A stretch of DNA of 7,222 nucleotides. Source: a virus. Its lineage: Duplodnaviria > Heunggongvirae > Uroviricota > Caudoviricetes. The stretch is taken from IMG/VR virus record IMGVR_UViG_2582580934_000004, positions 1 to 7,222 of that record; one strand, given 5' to 3'. How positions within the stretch are numbered: position 1 is the stretch's first letter; each line of letters begins with the position of its first letter. Both the position numbers and the translations under genes were made by a program. Of the stretch, positions 1 to 7,222 are shown in pieces. Under the pieces are notes generated by a model. It worked only from the letters and a program-made list of their open reading frames with translations, was not told the origin of the DNA and searched no databases.

Positions 1-57
1 CAGCAAGAGCTGCTGCAACGCATTGACAAGGTTTTTGATTTTTTTCTGAACCAGTAA
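1..57 (+). CDS. 3' end of an upstream ORF (partial; ...QQELLQRIDKVFDFFLNQ*), function unknown
   Basis: Frame 1 is open from the window edge to TAA at 55-57. Only 18 codons are visible, too few to identify. Confidence 0.25.
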   Translation, partial: QQELLQRIDKVFDFFLNQ

Positions 58-179
58 GAAACCAGAACATGCACACACAAAAAAACCGCTTGCCATGCCG
101 CAATCAGTCAGGTTACATTTCCGCTGCACCTCACAAAACGGGTGCCGGGTTTCGCAGCCTGCTGACTACACAAGCGCAC

Positions 180-201
180 AACCGCGCCAGCGGTTTTTTT
201 G
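180..201 (+). terminator. Putative rho-independent terminator
   Basis: Hairpin aaccgc (180-185) / gcggtt (190-195) with 4-nt loop gcca, running directly into a run of seven T (194-200). Confidence 0.5.
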
Positions 202-255
202 TGCGTACTGTATTGCCACGTTTTTTTCGCGTCAGAATTATGGCGGGGCGTACGG

Positions 256-290
256 GGCCGACTTCGGTCGGGCCGGATTCTTTGCTCTCC
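256..290 (+). terminator. Hairpin with a UUCG-type tetraloop followed by a U-rich tract; possible second terminator or structured leader
   Basis: ccgac (258-262) / gtcgg (267-271) around loop ttcg (263-266), extendable with one bulge; followed by ggattctttgctct. Confidence 0.3.
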
Positions 291-396
291 GGTGTTCTTG
301 TGTAGCCGGTACTGCGAACCTCGTACGTCTCGCCACCCACAGTTTCGCAGCTCTGGATGGTGAGTTTTCACAACTTACTACACAAGGGGCCACACC

Positions 397-627
397 ATGG
401 CAAACCGCAAACCACAGCGCGCATACGCTGCGCGTCGTCACATCCAGACTGAAATCAACCGTAGACTTTTCCGCGCATCACGCGTCGCGCAAATCATGCA
501 CATCAATATGCTGCATGAGCGCAGCCACGCGCTATCGAACATCTATTCCGCCTCTGTTTTCAGCTATCTGGCGGATGATCTGCGCGAGCTGCAACAACTC
601 TTCCAGCAGCAAAACAAACTCCATTAA
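397..627 (+). CDS. Hypothetical small basic protein (76 aa)
   Basis: ATG at 397 preceded by aagggg at 383-388; clean ORF with no overlap from another credible gene. No family recognised from the translation. Confidence 0.5.
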   Translation: MANRKPQRAYAARRHIQTEINRRLFRASRVAQIMHINMLHERSHALSNIYSASVFSYLADDLRELQQLFQQQNKLH

Positions 628-699
628 TTCCTGTTCCGGGCCTTTCCTGCACCTTGCGGCGGGAGGCCTTCGCACATCTGTAGTAAAGAGAATTGCAGC

Positions 700-1089
700 A
701 TGATTGACGCTCATGACTTCACAAGATGGGTGCGCACACAGGACACCCGTCTGGCTCCCGTTCTTCAGGGATTATTTGATCTCTACATCCGTGGTCGTGA
801 CAACAGAGCACGCACCACAAAACCGGAGAATGCAGACACCCTTTATTTCACAGTAGACGACTGCTACCGCGTGGACTTCACACCACACGGGCTGGCGTTG
901 CACTGCCTGACACCACACGGCGAATCACTACTGGCGTATTACGACTCCCCGGCCTCCGTATTTGCGGCAATGCTGGCGCATCGCACTGCTGGCGGGTGTG
1001 CCTCGCTGAGTGAATACACCGCTGAATTTGACCGCCTTTCCGCCATAACCGCCTTTCCGCCCTCTTCTCGCAGGAGTGGCAGCGCGTGA
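700..1089 (+). CDS. Hypothetical protein (129 aa) immediately upstream of the replication gene
   Basis: ATG at 700 with aagag 8 nt upstream; stop at 1087-1089, 14 nt before the gpA ATG at 1103. The 3' end contains a 14-bp direct repeat (see 1031-1064). Confidence 0.45.
   Translation: MIDAHDFTRWVRTQDTRLAPVLQGLFDLYIRGRDNRARTTKPENADTLYFTVDDCYRVDFTPHGLALHCLTPHGESLLAYYDSPASVFAAMLAHRTAGGCASLSEYTAEFDRLSAITAFPPSSRRSGSA
1031..1064 (+). repeat. Direct repeat accgcctttccgcc x2 with a 17-bp period (14/17 identity between the two 17-bp units)
   Basis: Exact 14-mer at 1031-1044 and 1048-1061, separated by ata. Lies in the last codons of ORF 700-1089. Confidence 0.85.
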
Positions 1090-1471
1090 CGGGATACCAG
1101 CCATGAGTGCGTTTGCATGGAGCTGGAATGAACCACGACCAGCTATTGATCCGGCCAGATTTACGGAGCGCAGGCAGGAAACTGAAACCGACCTGCAACG
1201 CGCCATCCGTTACTACCTTGAGGCGGACAAAAGGGCACAGGAAGAACAGGAAGCGAAGGAAGAAGCCTTTTTCGCACAATCCGCCATGGGTAAAAAACTC
1301 ATGGCATCCCTTGAGGAAGCCGGACAGCGTGAAAAGCTGGCTCAGAGCATCATCAGTAAGCGCCGGGCAACAGAACAAGACCCGGTAGCCCGTGCCTTTG
1401 CCACACTGAAGGCGCTTCCCGTTTATCTGCGAGAACCTCTGAGCCGCCACCTCTCTTTCCTGCGCAAAAAA

Positions 1472-1523
1472 CAGGAAGCCGATCGCCGGAAAGGAAGCAG
1501 GAAGCCGATCGTCAGAAAGGCAA
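1472..1523 (+). repeat. Imperfect tandem duplication, 2 x 26 bp (22/26 identical)
   Basis: caggaagccgatcg is exact at 1472-1485 and 1498-1511. Deleting one 26-bp unit joins gpA frame 2 to frame 1, giving ...LRKKQEADRQKGKKSWQAERY... Confidence 0.85.
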
Positions 1524-2895
1524 AAAGAGCTGGCAGGCGGAACGCTATGCACGCGGAACCCTGCGCAAAATATTCGAACGTCTGGACCGCACCGACAGCC
1601 GCTGGCTGACACCGGGTTATCGCTCCCTTGCCGGACGCGAACGCCTGGATGATTTGCTTTACCTGCCGCAGCTCAACAAGCACCAGATACAGACGCTGGC
1701 CACCATGACGGCGGCGATGTTCAGCAGCACCTTCGAAAAACTCTGCGATGGCTTTGGCGCGACCGATGGTGAGCTGACCATGGAGGTGGCACTGAAGGCG
1801 TATCAGATGCTGGCCCGCATGGCGTTACACCTGCACGCCATGCCTCCACATTATGACGCACTGACAACAGACAAAGACCGCAAGAACGAACCGGACACGG
1901 AACTGCTGCCGGGCGCAATCCTCCGCCTGACCTGTGCGGAATGGTGGAAACGCAAACTGTGGCTGTTACGTTGCGAGTGGCGGGAAGAACAACTCCGCGC
2001 CGCCTGTCTGGTTTCCAGAAAAACATCGCCCTATCTGAGCCAGGACGCGTTAAGCGAGTTTCGCGCACAGCGCGAGAAAACACGCGATTTCCTGAAAAGT
2101 TTCATGCTGGAAAACGAAGACGGGTTCACGATTGATCTCGAGACGGTGTATTACGCGGGAGTAAGTAACCCGGTTCACCGTAAGGCAGAAATGATGGCCA
2201 CCATGAAGGGGCTGGAACTTCTGGCCGAAGCCCGTGGCGACAGAGCGGTGTTTCTGACTGTCACCTGCCCGTCAAAATACCACGCAACAACGGAGAACGG
2301 TCATCCGAATCCCAAATGGAACGGGGCCACTATGCGCGACTCCAGCGATTACCTGGTTAACACGTTTTTTGCGGCGGTCCGCAAAAAACTGAACCGCGAC
2401 GGCCTGCGCTGGTATGGCATCCGCACGGTGGAGCCTCACCATGACGGCACCGTGCACTGGCATATGATGGTCTTTGCTCATCCGGAAGAAATCGACAGCA
2501 TCGTGGCCATCACCCGCGATATTGCCATTCAGGAAGACCGCCACGAGCTGGGCAATGATATTACTCCGCGCTTTAAGGTGGAGTATGTCGACGGCTCAAA
2601 AGGCACACCAACCAGCTACATCGCCACCTACATCGGAAAGAACCTGGACAGCCGCGCCGTGGATGGCATCGACCCAAAAACGGGCAAGCCACGCGTTGAC
2701 CACGAAACCGGAAAATCAATGGCCGAGAGCGTGGAACGCGCCATCGGCTGGGCGCGCCTTCACCGGGTCCGCCAGTTCCAGTTCTTTGGCATTCCCTCCC
2801 GTCAGGTGTGGCGTGAACTCCGCCGCCTTGCCAGCCAGATGGCACGCAACCCGGAAGGCCCGCAACGGCTGAAGGATGACGCAATGGATGCGGTA

Positions 2896-2927
2896 CTCGC
2901 TGCCGCTGATTCTTGCTGCCGCTGATG
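2896..2927 (+). repeat. Imperfect tandem duplication, 2 x 16 bp (14/16 identical)
   Basis: gctgccgctgat is exact at 2899-2910 and 2915-2926. Deleting one unit joins frame 1 to frame 2, giving ...DAVLAAADAGCFATYIEKQ... Confidence 0.85.
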
Positions 2928-3239
2928 CCGGGTGTTTTGCCACCTACATTGAAAAACAGGGTGGCGTACTTGTTCCGCGCAAGGACTACCTGATTCGCAC
3001 AGCCTACGACCTCGCAGATGAGCTGAACGATTACGGCGAACAGAGTGTACAGATTTACGGGATCTGGTCGCCACTCATCGGGGAATCCTCCCGTGTGTGC
3101 ACGCACCCGGATAACTGGAAGCTGGTAAGACGTAAACCGGAAGCGGAAGACAGCACCCACGAAAATGGTTTTGACCTTCAGGGCGGCCCTGCCGCCCCTT
3201 GGACTCGTGGCAATAACTGTCCCCGTGTACAGGAAACGG

Positions 3240-3297
3240 ACAACAACGGGACAGAACAGCCGGAAGAAACAACAACGGGACAGAACAGCCGAAAGAA
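3240..3297 (+). repeat. Imperfect tandem duplication, 2 x 29 bp (28/29 identical)
   Basis: acaacaacgggacagaacagccg at 3240-3262 and 3269-3291. Deleting one unit joins gpA frame 2 to frame 1. Confidence 0.85.
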
Positions 3298-3940
3298 CGG
3301 CCAGCACCGTGGCCGCAGCTCCCTGACGGCGTTGAAGTGAACGAATGGATGCGCTCACTGAAACGGCACGAACGCCGGGCGCTGATGCGTTCGCTTCGTG
3401 ACAAACAGGCAAAAAACAGCAGTGATGAAATGCAGAGCTGGACACAGAGCCGCAAACAGCAGCGGCCTTTGCCTGATAACCACGAATTACTCGCTAAAGA
3501 ATGGCGGGAATCTGCCGAATCTCTCGGCCTGCATATCGGTGAACAGCAGATGCAGCACCTGTTACGGGGCGGCAGCCTGTACGTTGACGGCAGCATCATT
3601 GCACCGCAGGGATTTGAAATTGTACGCAAACCGGATACCCGCCCGGACAGCCGGATCACGCAGCTCTGGCAGCGCCTGAGCCGTAACCACGGCGTAAGCA
3701 GCACGGAGATCCGCCATAACCCGGTCGCCAGCTATCTGGAACAGCTGGGGGCATCAGACCCCGAAGCCGCCGCACGCCTGGCATCCACACTTCAGCAGGA
3801 CCAGAACACCATGAAAACACCCGTTACCGTGCTTTCTGACATGCTGCGCGCCATCCGCGACGCAGAGCACGCACAGAGAATCAGTGAAACCACTGAACGC
3901 GCCCGCCGCAAAGCAGACCTGCTGCGGGGTGGCCTGACCA

Positions 3941-4060
3941 GTGGAAACAAAAAACAGACAGAAACGGGATTCACAAATCCCGTAAATGAGCAAAAAACGC
4001 GCCGCGATATATGAAGCGCGCATAAAACAGGCAAAAACGGGATTTCAGAATCCCGTAAAC
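3941..4060 (+). promoter_or_regulatory. parC-like region: two related ~40-bp units, each with a 20-bp hairpin palindrome, directly upstream of the parM-like gene
   Basis: acgggatt-caca-aatcccgt at 3964-3983 and acgggatt-tcag-aatcccgt at 4037-4056 (perfect 8-bp arms, 73 bp apart), each preceded by an aaaacag..aaa motif. The first lies inside the last codons of the gpA frame. AAGGA RBS at 4078-4082. Confidence 0.4.
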
Positions 4061-4090
4061 GATTAATTAATCAACATAAGGAAAAGCGAC

Positions 4091-5073
4091 ATGAAAATTT
4101 GTATCGACGACGGCTCCACCAACATCAAGCTGGCATGGACTGAGAACGGCGAACGCCGCAACGCCATCAGCCCGAACAGCTTCAAGTCGGAATGGTCTGC
4201 GCCGTTCGGTGGTACGCAGCCCGCGAACTACATGCTTGATGGCGTGCGCTATGGTTTTGATCCGGTCAGCGATCGCTTTGTCCAGACGACCGACACGCAA
4301 TACCAGTACAGCGATGTGAATGTCATTGCCATTCATCACGCGCTGGTCAAATCAGGCATCACGCCACAGGAGGTGGATGTGGTTGTCACCCTGCCACTGA
4401 GCGAGTATTTCGACACAAACGCACAGCCGGACATGGCCAACATCAGCCGCAAAAAAGCGAACGTATCAACCGCAAAAAAGCGAACGTTATGCGCCCGGTG
4501 GAGTACCAGAACGGCGAAGCATTCACTATCCGTAACGTACGGGTTATGCCTGAATCCATTCCGGCTGGCTTTAAAGCACTGGCTGACATGAGTCCGTTTG
4601 AATCCCTGCTGATTGTGGATTTGGGCGGAACCACGCTGGATGTGGCAAAGGTTCAGGGGCAACTGGCAGGTATCAGCCAGGTGTTTTGCGATCCACACGT
4701 AGGCGTTTCTCTGATGGCCAATGCCGTACTGTCGGTGATGGCCACTAACGGTATGCGCACCAGTCACCACATCGCCAATACCATTATCGAACATCGCCAT
4801 GATGAAGCCTGGCTGCGCCAGCACATCCACAATGACGCGCATTACGACAGCCTGATGGCGGTTATTCGTGAAAAGGAAGAAACACTGAAACAACGAGTGA
4901 TCCGCGCGCTGGCGGGTTTTTCGGGTTACGGGCGGGTGATGGTTGTCGGTGGCGGGGCGGAGATTGTGGCACCCGCTATCCGCGAAGCCTGCGGAGTTAA
5001 TGCGACTTTCATCGCGGACGGGGTGCCACAGTTTGCTCTGGTTAATGGGCTGTACGCAATGGACAAGGAGTAA
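4091..5073 (+). pseudogene. parM: ParM/StbA-like actin-family segregation ATPase, split by one frameshift
   Basis: Translation matches plasmid R1 ParM at recalled conserved blocks: ICIDDGSTNIKLAW, ISPNSFK, YSDVNVIAIHHAL, RKKANV, VMPESIPAG, LIVDLGGTTLD, VMVVGGGAEI, FALVNGLYAMDKE. Frame 2 (4091 to about 4464) switches to frame 1 (about 4465-5073) at a 23-bp tandem duplication. Without the duplication the product is 319 aa, about the size of R1 ParM. Confidence 0.8.
4442..4487 (+). repeat. Imperfect tandem duplication, 2 x 23 bp (22/23 identical)
   Basis: atcagccgcaaaaaagcgaacgt / atcaaccgcaaaaaagcgaacgt. Deleting one unit gives ...ANISRKKANVMRPVEYQNGEAFTIRNVRVMPESIP..., colinear with ParM. Confidence 0.9.
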
Positions 5074-5077
5074 ACCA

Positions 5078-5389
5078 ATGACGACACCAACCAGACGGAT
5101 AAGTTTCTATCTGAAGCCCGTCGCCGTCAAGAACGAAGGCGAAGCATGCGCCTGGCTGGACAGCCTTACACCAGAAGCCCGCAAAAGCGGCCAACGTGTG
5201 GCTTTTCTGGCCGGGCTGGCACTTCTGAAAATGAATCCGGCAGAGGCTTACCGACTGGCTGCATGGGCTGACGATGAGGCGTTATCAGTGACACAAACCA
5301 GGACAGAACGCCCCGCGTCACAGCCAGTACCAACCACACAGATAACCAGTCGGATGGCCGGAAATATCAGGGCGTTATTTCCCGAATAA
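5078..5389 (+). CDS. parR: ParR-like centromere-binding adaptor (103 aa)
   Basis: ATG at 5078 preceded by AAGGAG at 5065-5070, starting 4 nt after the parM stop (TAA 5071-5073). RRISFYLKP....RVAFLAGLALL resembles the N-terminal DNA-binding region of R1 ParR (recalled). The ORF track extends this frame to ATG 4943 inside parM, which is unlikely to be the real start. Confidence 0.6.
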   Translation: MTTPTRRISFYLKPVAVKNEGEACAWLDSLTPEARKSGQRVAFLAGLALLKMNPAEAYRLAAWADDEALSVTQTRTERPASQPVPTTQITSRMAGNIRALFPE

Positions 5390-5394
5390 CACAA

Positions 5395-5418
5395 CATCAG
5401 GGCGCATCCGCCCTGATG
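5395..5418 (+). promoter_or_regulatory. Inverted repeat with 10-bp arms (catcagggcg / cgccctgatg) between parR and the next gene; operator or weak terminator
   Basis: Perfect 10-bp arms around a 4-nt loop. The core ATCAGGGCG also occurs as a direct copy at 5366-5374. Followed by actttaat, which is only weakly U-rich. Confidence 0.35.
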
Positions 5419-5452
5419 ACTTTAATCCGGGAACATAAACAAGGGGGACACA

Positions 5453-5785
5453 ATGCAACACATTGACAGAGAAAAAGCGCAGCGACTGATTGAGCGGATG
5501 GAAGCGCTGGCGAAAGAAGAAAATGTCAACATCCAAAAAATAGCTGAATGTGGCCAGATAGTTCTTCGTCGTGAAAAAGACCTCAAACAACTGATGTCTG
5601 GCGAAACCAGCAAAACATGGACTTCAGGCGAGGAGACGATTTATTGCAGCTTCTGCAATAAATCTCAGTACGAAGTCACAAAGGTGATTGCCGGACCGTC
5701 TGTTTGCATCTGCAATGAGTGCGTGGATTTGTGCAATGAAATTATCAGGAGAGAAGTGACAGACAAAAAGGGAAAAAACGCATGA
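5453..5785 (+). CDS. Small protein (110 aa) with a C-terminal ClpX-type C4 zinc-finger (ClpX N-domain-like) and an unrelated ~60-aa N-terminal region
   Basis: ATG at 5453 with aaggggga RBS at 5441-5448. Residues [39 protein letters not shown] closely resemble the E. coli ClpX zinc-binding domain (recalled as [40 protein letters not shown]), including all four Cys. No AAA+ domain follows. Confidence 0.75.
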
Positions 5786-6120
5786 ACAGAAAACAAAAAC
5801 AAGAGTTGAAATACTTTTTACGTAAAGAAATTGCCAGGCTTGAAGATGCAGAATCACAATCATCAGAAATTCCGTTCGGAATGGATATCAACGACGCCCG
5901 TATGCTCCAGGCATACCGCATAGCTCAGGCTGCACTACAGGCAAAACCGTCAGATGGACTGGTTAGAGCAGTACGATTCTATGAACTGGTAAAGCGTGAG
6001 AATCCGCCAGCCGAAACCGGAGCATGGAAAGACGCTGTTGACTGGGTACTCAAAGAGGCTTGTCAGGTTGTAAACACTGGCATCAAAGGAGACCTAGCCC
6101 AGCCTGCATCAAAGCTATAG
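5782..6120 (+). CDS. Hypothetical protein (112 aa), translationally coupled to the ClpX-zinc-finger gene
   Basis: ATG at 5782 overlaps the upstream TGA (5783-5785) as ATGA; aaggga about 8 nt upstream; stop TAG at 6118-6120 followed by a strong terminator. No family recognised. Confidence 0.6.
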
Positions 6121-6130
6121 AAATGAGCCA

Positions 6131-6160
6131 AAACGCCCTCTTCCAGGGCGTTTATTTCAA
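6131..6160 (+). terminator. Rho-independent terminator ending the + strand cargo operon
   Basis: Perfect 9-bp stem aaacgccct (6131-6139) / agggcgttt (6145-6153), 5-nt loop, then atttcaa; begins 11 nt after the stop at 6120. Confidence 0.7.
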
Positions 6161-6190
6161 TGCACAATAGTGCACAAATTTGCACAATTT
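6161..6190. repeat. Three helically phased TGCACAA repeats (10-bp period) followed by a T-run
   Basis: TGCACAA at 6161-6167, 6171-6177 and 6181-6187; a fourth copy at 6253-6259. Confidence 0.8.
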
Positions 6191-6230
6191 TTTTGAACGA
6201 CTTTTTGCCCTTCCGGCCCGCGTGGCAGTT

Positions 6231-6249
6231 GGATCCGTCAAGGATCCGT
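6231..6249. repeat. GGATCCGT direct repeat x2 (11-bp period)
   Basis: ggatccgt at 6231-6238 and 6242-6249; the same 8-mer recurs inside the portal gene at 7082-7089. Confidence 0.6.
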
Positions 6250-6310
6250 GCGTGCACAAAAAAACGCGCTTTTTCTGCGCGCAGGTGACGGGGGAACAGC
6301 CCGCGTTTCA

Positions 6311-6318
6311 GGGGGGGG
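6311..6318. repeat. Homopolymeric G8 tract adjacent to a small hairpin (gggaa-tagcg-ttccc)
   Basis: Eight consecutive G at 6311-6318 in non-coding DNA; gggaa (6316-6320) pairs with ttccc (6326-6330). Confidence 0.85.
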
Positions 6319-6362
6319 AATAGCGTTCCCTTAACGATGTCGCAGCGACACGACAGAATGGC

Positions 6363-6393
6363 CGTATTTCTCACGCTGAGCGTGAAAAATACG
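6363..6393. other. 31-bp near-perfect palindrome (14-bp arms, one mismatch, 3-bp centre)
   Basis: cgtatttctcacgc-tga-gcgtgaaaaatacg; the reverse complement of the left arm differs from the right arm at one position. Confidence 0.8.
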
Positions 6394-6561
6394 TGAGGGA
6401 TTCTGGTTTGATGGGGTGAAAGGTAAGGCCGTCAAAATCGCACTGAGGCGGCGAGAACATGCAGTCAGCGCAGTGGGATTGCGTAAGAGTCTGACCGTCG
6501 ATGATGGCAATAAGCAGGAAAGCGTCGTGAAATTATCTGACTGATACAGGAGCTGGAGAGT

Positions 6562-6586
6562 CGGGGCATAAATTTTTTATGCCCCG
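6562..6586. terminator. Inverted repeat cggggcataaa / tttatgccccg downstream of the portal gene; weak candidate terminator
   Basis: Perfect 11-bp arms with a 3-nt loop; GC-rich base and AT-rich top; no clear U-tract after it on either strand. Confidence 0.3.
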
Positions 6587-6636
6587 GCGAAGCAGCAGAC
6601 AAGCGAAGCGCGTCAGGATGTGGGCTGGGTGTCCAG

Positions 6637-6710
6637 CAGTGCATAAGGGTTAAAGCGGATCACCTCTATCTAACAGTGCGTAAGGGTTAAAGCGGATCAC
6701 CTCTTCGCCA
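6637..6710. repeat. Imperfect tandem duplication with a 37-bp period across the 3' end of the portal gene
   Basis: cagtgcataagggttaaagcggatcacctct (6637-6667) against cagtgcgtaagggttaaagcggatcacctct (6674-6704), 30/31 identical. The - strand stop codon (6650-6652) lies inside the first copy. Confidence 0.85.
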
Positions 6711-7222
6711 AGCCAGTCATTGATGTGCTTCATGGCCTCCATGACGGGCATCAGCTCGTTAATTGCGTAAACCCGCGCGGCCTTCTCCACATCACCAAAC
6801 GCACTTTTTTCACCCGGCATCGCCCCCATCAGTTGCGGCGGAACGCGGTGCGCAGCCAGTACATCATCACGGGATGCCGCCTTAACATTCATGAACTCAT
6901 CCTTTGCGGTGATCTGCTGGAACGGCAAAATTTGCACACCTTCTTTGCCCCCGTTGGGCGCATGAATGAGCACGTTTTTAAACGCACCACCACCACGTGC
7001 ACCCTGTAACGTTTCTTTCAGGGAGTCCATGCTTTCGCGGTTTACCTGCGCTGCACCGATGTAGATGATGCACCCGGCGTGGGATCCGTTGTCGTAGTAC
7101 AGTTTTCTGAACATGTCCGCCGAATGAGAAAGGCTGGCTGAGAGTAATGCGCCAAGATATTCCGGCATGCCGTAGATTTCCTGGTTAATATCCGGATTCA
7201 TCAGGTGGCACACTTTGCCAGG
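6650..7222 (-). CDS. Portal protein (P2 gpQ-like), 3' portion; the 5' end lies beyond the window
   Basis: The - strand translation (NPDINQEIYGMPEYL...YYDNGSHAG...SRDDVLAAHRVPPQLMG...FGDVEKAARV...NDWLGEEVIRF) resembles P2-family portal proteins as recalled. It is convergent with gpA, as expected for the A-cos-Q arrangement. The C-terminal codons run through the 37-bp duplication. Confidence 0.7.
   Translation of the reverse strand, partial: PGKVCHLMNPDINQEIYGMPEYLGALLSASLSHSADMFRKLYYDNGSHAGCIIYIGAAQVNRESMDSLKETLQGARGGGAFKNVLIHAPNGGKEGVQILPFQQITAKDEFMNVKAASRDDVLAAHRVPPQLMGAMPGEKSAFGDVEKAARVYAINELMPVMEAMKHINDWLGEEVIRFNPYALLDRGDPL

Follow-up and report, generated by a model that had tools for sequence, protein, structure and literature searches.

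A free-standing ClpX-type zinc-binding domain encoded in a P88-like Escherichia coli prophage, a candidate decoy for clients of ClpXP

We analyzed a stretch of 7,222 nucleotides from a tailed-phage genome (IMG/VR record IMGVR_UViG_2582580934_000004, positions 1 to 7,222; hereafter "the window") and found that one of its genes, open reading frame 1 (ORF1), codes for a protein of 110 residues ending in a zinc-binding domain (ZBD) of the type that forms the N-domain of ClpX. The reading we favor, to which we assign a probability of about 0.42 from sequence comparison and a predicted structure, is that ORF1 acts as a stand-alone phage decoy or anti-adaptor, which would mimic the ClpX N-domain and thereby alter ClpXP proteolysis. 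It is supported by the identity of the domain, its four cysteines, the retained pocket residues F67 and I97, the selection acting on the gene, and its recurrence in different elements with changing neighbors.

The identity of the domain was established by several searches. Residues 64-99 of ORF1 matched the Pfam family zf-C4_ClpX (PF06689) with E = 2.9e-16 (59.5 bits, cut-off 27), in agreement with a first-pass annotation, made from the letters of the window, which had proposed a ClpX-like zinc-binding C-terminus. In a profile search of PDB sequences the top solved relative was the E. coli ClpX ZBD (1ovx, E = 3.8e-18); 30 of the 41 aligned residues, as counted manually on this alignment, are shared with E. 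coli ClpX residues 11-51 (~73% identity). The best solved-structure relatives of ORF1 were all ClpX, with the E. coli chain scoring highest and the others declining to 26 bits (6vfs), and the profile of the protein family to which ORF1 belongs, phrog_6797, recovered the same ClpX list as ORF1 alone. The spacing of the zinc ribbon is that of ClpX, C-x2-C-x18-C-x2-C followed by a helix, and the predicted zinc ligands C65, C68, C87 and C90, invariant across 34 family clusters, align with the ligand cysteines of ClpX, which we take to be C14, C17, C36 and C39 in the numbering of the literature. The AAA+ module is absent from ORF1, as had also been claimed: the NCBIfam clpX model (TIGR00382) scored 48.5 bits against a cut-off of 370.75, and its match was confined to ORF1 residues 60-106, corresponding to model positions 6-52.

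An AlphaFold2 model of ORF1, built on an alignment of 34 family members, reached a mean predicted local distance difference test (pLDDT) score of 80.8, with the blocks spanning residues 1-40 at 81-94. Residues from about 49 to 60 form a disordered linker, in which the pLDDT of 54-59 falls under 50, and residues 61-109 form a zinc ribbon and a helix. Foldseek superposed the predicted ZBD on the ClpX ZBD structures 2ds5 and 2ds6 and on the complex of the ZBD with the SspB tail (XB), 2ds8, with a root-mean-square deviation of 0.7 Å over 40 residues at 72% identity. Against 2ds5_A the template-modeling (TM) score on the target was 0.89, and the predicted fold is a treble-clef zinc ribbon with a C-terminal helix. 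The two residues of the ClpX side pocket are kept, F67 of ORF1 corresponding to ClpX F16 and I97 to ClpX I46, and ORF1 retains nearly the full set of hydrophobic-core and helix residues found in the ClpX ZBD (I79, V84, I86, V91, L93, I97 and I98).

Position 85 of ORF1 holds a cysteine where ClpX has Y34. That this change represents a lesion was ruled out, since family members have Y, F, C or W at this point and exactly the same sequence is found in five genomes. An XB-like "LKxh" motif within ORF1 itself (L44-K-Q-L) was considered as well and dropped, because its lysine varies within the family.

The first-pass annotation had also described a different N-terminus of about 60 residues, and indeed the N-terminal ~58 residues of ORF1 matched no family in Pfam. 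Searched alone against PHROGs they found only phrog_6797 (E = 6e-27), whose function is unannotated in that database; the whole protein aligns with the same profile over residues 1-106 (profile positions 5-107 of 107, E = 1.1e-57). Foldseek with the whole ORF1 model returned ClpX ZBDs only and nothing for the N-terminal helical hairpin, which carries a motif conserved in the family, EKAxxxlERlEALAxEE...LRRkxDxxxLxS. Database searches gave about 34 clusters at 90% identity, 102-128 residues long and from Escherichia or Salmonella, with a uniform two-part architecture. The invariant columns of the ZBD in the family are C65, F67, C68, G81, I86, C87, C90 and V91, so that the pocket phenylalanine is among them, and the position of I97 is I, V, L or A in nearly the whole family. 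An exhaustive search of 1.84 billion representatives added few full-length relatives (P0307, P0373 and P0381), and retrieved 11,491 ZBD-containing proteins at E ≤ 0.001. NCBI names proteins of the family "ClpX C4-type zinc finger protein"; both the domain and its free-standing occurrence are therefore already catalogued, under this name and as phrog_6797. The label "carboxylate--amine ligase" is common on ORF1 homologues (in the P88 record KP063541, CDS AIZ95127.1, and in many GenBank entries), is unsupported by the sequence, and appears to be a propagated mis-annotation.

Pairwise Nei-Gojobori estimates of the ratio of nonsynonymous to synonymous substitution rates (dN/dS), based on small counts, gave whole-gene values of 0.17-0.56 in 9 of the 11 computable pairs (full range 0.17-0.82), and, of the three deepest pairs, two gave ZBD values of 0.10 and 0.18. 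Since these ratios lie below 1, ORF1 is a real gene under selection, and this selection is purifying. A functionless, decaying leftover from capture of the 5' end of clpX, which the frameshifting duplications in gpA and parM of the window's prophage and the existence of ORF1-less deletion variants might call to mind, is most improbable: apart from the dN/dS values, the near-full-length P88-type ORF1 is found in 113 E. coli records with its reading frame intact in all of them, at least 34 clusters (90% identity) share the two-domain architecture, the family is present in the viable phages P88 and D6, and the gene lacks DNA-level likeness to clpX. In a "distant" blastn search, ORF1 matched 221 of 5426 complete E. 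coli genomes across both allele types (112 near-full-length, the remainder over the ZBD-coding part only); because no more than these were matched, the ORF1 DNA does not match clpX itself, and recent capture from the host clpX is unsupported at the DNA level.

ORF1 is followed by a second gene, ORF2, and the first-pass annotation had presented the two as a dedicated cassette. This did not hold, because the pair is not conserved across genomes, an outcome that the annotation itself had named as refuting: ORF2 adjoins ORF1 in only 73 of the 113 records, with other neighbors or none elsewhere. In a P88-like prophage of E. coli BCE049 (locus L010, 4003-4754) a convergent Phd/Doc toxin-antitoxin pair occupies the ORF2 position 3' of the ZBD gene, and in strain ET358 the ZBD gene is followed by a 174-residue gene and an Ead/Ea22 gene. 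Other P88-like prophages carry in the same place a ~45%-identical allele (105 or 110 residues), followed either by a 169-residue gene and Ead_Ea22 or by Ead_Ea22 alone. In Salmonella P2-like prophages, which here contain neither ParMR nor ORF2, a 43%-identical homologue of 128 residues occupies the gpA-portal slot as the last gene ahead of the portal region. Regular co-occurrence of the pair at the same position in P2-like prophages, which the first-pass annotation had suggested surveying, was not borne out. Homologues of 107-119 residues also lie within Ead/Ea22-type arrays, on the SSU5-like plasmid p09EL50, on P1/D6-like plasmids and in a lambdoid prophage, where they keep a four-base overlap with a next gene that varies (173 residues, 236 residues, or DUF4752). 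Because the downstream neighbor changes between elements, the conserved unit is, judging from these gene orders, ORF1 alone. In the P2-like elements and the lambdoid prophage the ORF1 family gene stands 3' of replication genes on the same strand. Among isolated phages, matches covering at least 85% of the query were found in P88, PhiR44_2, PhiR41_1, CMS-2020a and D6, and the same coverage was reached, at 36% identity, by one unclassified human-gut "Bacteriophage sp." contig.

The same survey bears on the proposal that ORF1 and ORF2 form the sensor and effector of a two-component phage-exclusion or anti-defense module. The four-base overlap and common terminator of the two genes, their location in the cargo slot of P2, and the 73 E. 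coli records that hold both of them speak for such a module, which we nevertheless regard as very unlikely. Besides the lack of conservation of the pair, the C-terminal module of ORF2 is far commoner than ORF1, overlaps of the ATGA or IKGE-ATG kind are generic to such arrays, and the ORF2 of P88 is itself a deletion fusion (see below). In addition, ORF1 matched none of the known anti-phage defense models in PADLOC-DB 2.0, and for ORF2 only a weak match to PDC-M28C was obtained (E = 0.013, 12.3 bits).

How a decoy might act can be sketched from what is known of ClpX. The ClpX ZBD, a dimer, serves as the docking site for SspB and RssB and for substrates, lambda O among them. The hydrophobic side pocket of ClpX is formed by F16 and I46; it overlaps the site for lambda O, and trigger factor, SspB and RssB bind there (PMC7804408). 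RssB and SspB have been proposed to compete for docking on the ZBD by means of an LKxh-like motif (PMC7226468). In our proposed mechanism ORF1 would present a ClpX-like N-domain in trans, as a dimer of the ZBD type, and would bind the ligands of the ClpX N-domain, namely the XB-like motifs of SspB and RssB or degrons of the lambda O or MuA type. It would thereby compete with ClpX and pull N-domain-dependent clients away from ClpXP, so that one or more phage or host proteins would be stabilized during phage early-gene expression; the N-terminal hairpin may stabilize the dimer or supply a second binding specificity. More tentatively, we propose that phrog_6797 proteins in general could be viral mimics that titrate SspB, RssB or N-domain-dependent degrons, by which temperate phages and phage-plasmids of several kinds (P2-like, P1/D6-like, SSU5-like and lambdoid) would reprogram ClpXP. 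If so, possible payoffs include the protection of a replication initiator or an antitoxin, a raised level of sigma-S, and the blunting of abortive infection triggered through ClpXP. The ClpXP dependence of CmdTAC, a P2-borne defense system, and of antitoxins generally, is a plausible selective context for ORF1. The Phd antitoxin of P1 is a ClpXP substrate, and the position of Phd/Doc next to a ClpX-domain mimic in BCE049 may or may not be a coincidence.

Several observations weigh against the decoy. A pure decoy model does not account for the conserved N-terminal hairpin. The ZBD surface shifts rapidly in the subgroup of 105-110 residues (AGPSV to AGDDV or TGEGV, with D41/L42 varying as well; dN/dS 0.4-0.7), and the residue matching ClpX Y34 varies among Y, F, C and W in the family, being C in the window. 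On these sequences, the rapid surface change could mean that the ligand is other than that of ClpX; it is compatible with an arms race or with a shift of ligand. The gene is also dispensable, as seen from a ParM-ORF2 fusion (P0075) which occurs on 143 contigs as a common deletion derivative, and from NZ_CP148288.1, a circular record of the P88-like kind in which most of ORF1 is missing. The fusion proteins of this type (P0072-P0078, 191 residues) join the N-terminal domain of ParM to the C-terminal module of ORF2, the deletion having taken out ParR and the ZBD gene.

Because the hairpin is unexplained, there is room for a different role, in which ORF1 would pair with the N-domains of host ClpX as mixed ZBD dimers on the hexamer, either as an adaptor that delivers cargo bound by the hairpin or as a poison subunit that blocks the N-domain. 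Such an arrangement would suit a conserved extra domain carried on a flexible linker, and the near-complete retention of the ClpX ZBD core and helix residues also points in its direction, the ClpX ZBD having reportedly been described as a dimerization domain by Wojtyra et al. in 2003. The ZBD dimers of ClpX are stable and are tethered in cis in the hexamer, however, and a free domain may be slow to exchange with them; nor can conservation tell homodimerization from heterodimerization. We hold mixed dimers to be unlikely. Re-use of the ZBD fold outside ClpXP altogether, for instance in the binding of a phage or host protein or of nucleic acid, seems doubtful to a similar degree. Its merits are the 11,491 ZBD proteins, of which many among the top 150 are short or carry multiple ZBDs with no sign of AAA+, the variable ZBD surface positions in the phage family, and the location of the gene in accessory arrays of unannotated function. 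Set against these, the P88-type domain, being ~73% identical to the host ClpX ZBD with the pocket kept, is much closer than retention of the fold needs, and similarity peaks at the E. coli ClpX chain, down to 26 bits for 6vfs.

A decoy of the kind that we favor can be compared with several known systems. With the ClpX N-domain itself ORF1 shares the C4 zinc ribbon followed by a helix at ~73% identity, a predicted fold within 0.7 Å, and the F16/I46 pocket. Unlike ClpX, its ZBD is phage-encoded, lies at the C-terminus of 110 residues behind an unrelated hairpin, has no AAA+ ATPase, and has Cys in place of Y34. The phage proteins T4 PinA and T7 Gp4.5 are inhibitors of Lon. They resemble the role proposed for ORF1 in that they are small phage proteins which modulate a host ATP-dependent protease; they differ in that their target is Lon and not ClpXP, their sequences are unrelated, and no mimicry of a protease domain is involved. 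In E. coli the small anti-adaptors IraP, IraM and IraD are described as blocking the ClpXP adaptor RssB so that sigma-S is stabilized (PMC4428439, PMC3877760). A proposed analogy with ORF1 would lie in small size and in shifting the targets of ClpXP with ATPase and peptidase untouched; the Ira proteins have no sequence or fold similarity to ORF1, and they bind RssB by folds of their own, whereas ORF1 would mimic the docking site on ClpX.

In a full-text literature search we found no paper devoted to a ClpX N-domain protein encoded by a phage, and nothing on phrog_6797. If the decoy function is true, ORF1 would be a novel variant among the phage modulators of host proteases and, to judge from the literature searched, the first protein of a phage to act by copying the recognition domain of a protease. 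A copy of the ClpX docking domain would then be a simple and portable way to re-route ClpXP, and would add domain mimicry to a short list of modulators. The family is common in prophages and phage-plasmids of clinical and veterinary E. coli, and is easy to test, consisting in the window of a single 110-residue gene and being amenable to established ClpXP assays.

Short ZBD-only proteins also occur in unrelated phages, with Caulobacter phage Cr30, Bacillus phage G and human-gut "Bacteriophage sp." contigs among the records (phrog_12435 and phrog_5259), and complete homologues of ClpX are encoded by jumbo phages. Outside phrog_6797, too, phages may repeatedly have made use of ClpX zinc fingers that stand alone.

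ORF2 had been described as having no recognizable family. This stood for Pfam, with no match at E ≤ 0.1 for the whole protein and none at E ≤ 10 for its halves, and for NCBIfam, also with no match; it did not stand for PHROGs, where ORF2 matched phrog_26213, phrog_660 and phrog_250, all unannotated in function. Homologues of ORF2 number 591, nearly all from Escherichia, and share a near-invariant C-terminal module of 48 residues that follows a wide variety of N-termini in phages of the lambdoid and P22-like kinds and in phage-plasmids. Some of the proteins that bear the module (P0157, P0161 and P0180) have an N-terminal PF13935 (Ead_Ea22) domain, a family which ORF2 itself does not match. The module DNA alone occurred in 710 of the 5426 E. 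coli genomes, most of which lack ORF1, as well as in 13 phage records, lambdoid and Uetakevirus phages being represented, and 41 plasmids. The AlphaFold2 model of ORF2 has four helices with moderate confidence (pLDDT 68.9); Foldseek against the PDB gave nothing better than E = 0.75, and a profile search of PDB sequences gave no matches.

In most prophages ORF2 is a protein of 104 residues that ends in GIKGD/E, and between one and three additional small genes come after it. In the window and in P88 a deletion has fused codon 104 to the last eight codons of a distal gene, as read from two other loci (L002, 4393-4707 with 4915-5256; L003, 4393-4707 with 4846-5106). We conclude, from these comparisons between elements, that ORF2 is a shuffled mosaic accessory protein and no dedicated partner of ORF1. 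Module shuffling would have put it beside ORF1, and the ATGA overlap would be the usual translational-coupling joint of such arrays.

Arrays of Ead/Ea22-like (PF13935) genes, known from lambdoid, P22-like, P1-like and SSU5-like elements, share the C-terminal module of ORF2 and house homologues of ORF1. Like the window they have GI(R)IKGE-stop gene ends with an overlapping ATG; they differ in location, the genes of the window lying in the P2-type slot between gpA and the portal gene and not in the lambdoid early-left region. Genes of these arrays often end in GI(R)IKG(E/D)-stop (window, 6082-6093; L007, 4348-4821 and 5143-5664; L002, 4393-4707), and the codons AAA GGA GA(A/C) at these ends form a Shine-Dalgarno sequence for the gene that follows, often together with an ATG that overlaps. 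Such a gene end looks like a conserved joint for the exchange of modules.

The coordinates and lengths first given for the two genes were confirmed (Table 1), as was their four-base ATGA overlap: the junction reads GCATGAAC, with the ATG of ORF2 at 5782 and the TGA of ORF1 at 5783-5785. ORF1 has a ribosome-binding site, AAGGGGGA, 7 nucleotides 5' of its ATG. The terminator claimed after the pair corresponds to a terminator-like hairpin with a 7-bp G+C-rich stem followed by UUUAUUUC (-14.8 kcal/mol, z = -3.6; none of 200 shuffled sequences was equally stable). The stem-loop upstream of ORF1 scored as terminator-like on the minus strand and has only a weak U-tract on the plus strand; it could serve to end transcription in part or to stabilize RNA. 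A search of 5390-5452, directly 5' of ORF1, gave no sigma-70-like promoter, and for this reason transcription of ORF1 and ORF2 probably comes from upstream.

Table 1. Coordinates, within the window, of the features of the ORF1-ORF2 region
Feature	Position	Strand	Description
ORF1	5453-5785	+	110 aa; phrog_6797; helical hairpin, flexible linker and ClpX-type ZBD
ORF1 residues 1-48, family-specific helical hairpin	5453-5596	+	predicted helices 6-22 and 27-48
ORF1 residues 61-110, ClpX-type zinc-binding domain	5633-5785	+	PF06689 over residues 64-99
ORF2	5782-6120	+	112 aa; mosaic small prophage protein of the Ead/Ea22-array kind
ORF2 residues 57-104, near-invariant C-terminal module ending (D/E)	5950-6093	+	
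ORF2 residues 105-112 (LAQPASKL) and stop codon	6094-6120	+	fused 3' end of another gene
Perfect 10-bp stem-loop, between parR stop codon and ORF1	5395-5418	.	-19.6 kcal/mol, z = -4.0
Terminator-like hairpin 3' of ORF2	6133-6158	+	U-rich tail

Over positions 5390-6160 the identity to Escherichia phage P88 (Peduoviridae, Xuanwuvirus) is 99.9%, and five E. coli chromosomes match at 100%. By these nucleotide matches the window is a P88-like element of the Peduoviridae, that is, a P2-like prophage of E. coli. The gene order is gpA replication endonuclease (PF05840), ParM, ParR (Plasmid_stab_B), ORF1, ORF2 and, on the opposite strand, the portal gene (PF04860). In P2-family genomes the interval that separates gpA from the portal gene is a slot for variable cargo, and ORF1 and ORF2 do lie, as had been claimed, where P2 carries tin and old, two genes that we take to occupy the matching slot, with gene A on one side and the portal gene Q on the other. 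Tin and Old act in phage exclusion and are made in lysogens. They share with ORF1 and ORF2 an equivalent genomic position in a P2-family genome and no homology; unlike tin and old, ORF1 is without a match to a defense model, ORF2 has a weak one only (E = 0.013), and no promoter of their own was found in the interval searched 5' of ORF1.

In the window gpA is split into several frames by a 29-bp tandem duplication at 3240-3297 together with indels at 2892-2914, and a 23-bp tandem duplication at 4442-4487 throws parM out of frame. Both genes are intact in P88 and in strain FDAARGOS_1288, which is 100% identical over ORF1-ORF2. Compared with these, the window's prophage copy looks replication-defective, or else its lesions look like assembly errors.

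A full ParM/ParR plasmid partition cassette of the actin type lies at 4091-5389, right behind gpA, in this P2-family phage, and NZ_CP148288.1 (locus L024) is a circular 34.5-kb E. coli "plasmid" record that consists of a P88-like genome. Because of this cassette and this circular record, P88-like phages may persist as episomes, which suggests a phage-plasmid lifestyle. The stop codon of gpA, just 5' of parM, is flanked by two near-identical 20-bp palindromes at 3964-3983 and 4037-4056, ACGGGATT-N4-AATCCCGT, which could be ParR-binding (parC-like) sites or bidirectional terminators. Finally, the non-coding segment at 6161-6188, between the hairpin 3' of ORF2 and the portal gene, contains three TGCACAA repeats at a spacing of 10 bp; the cos site of P2 lies in this region.

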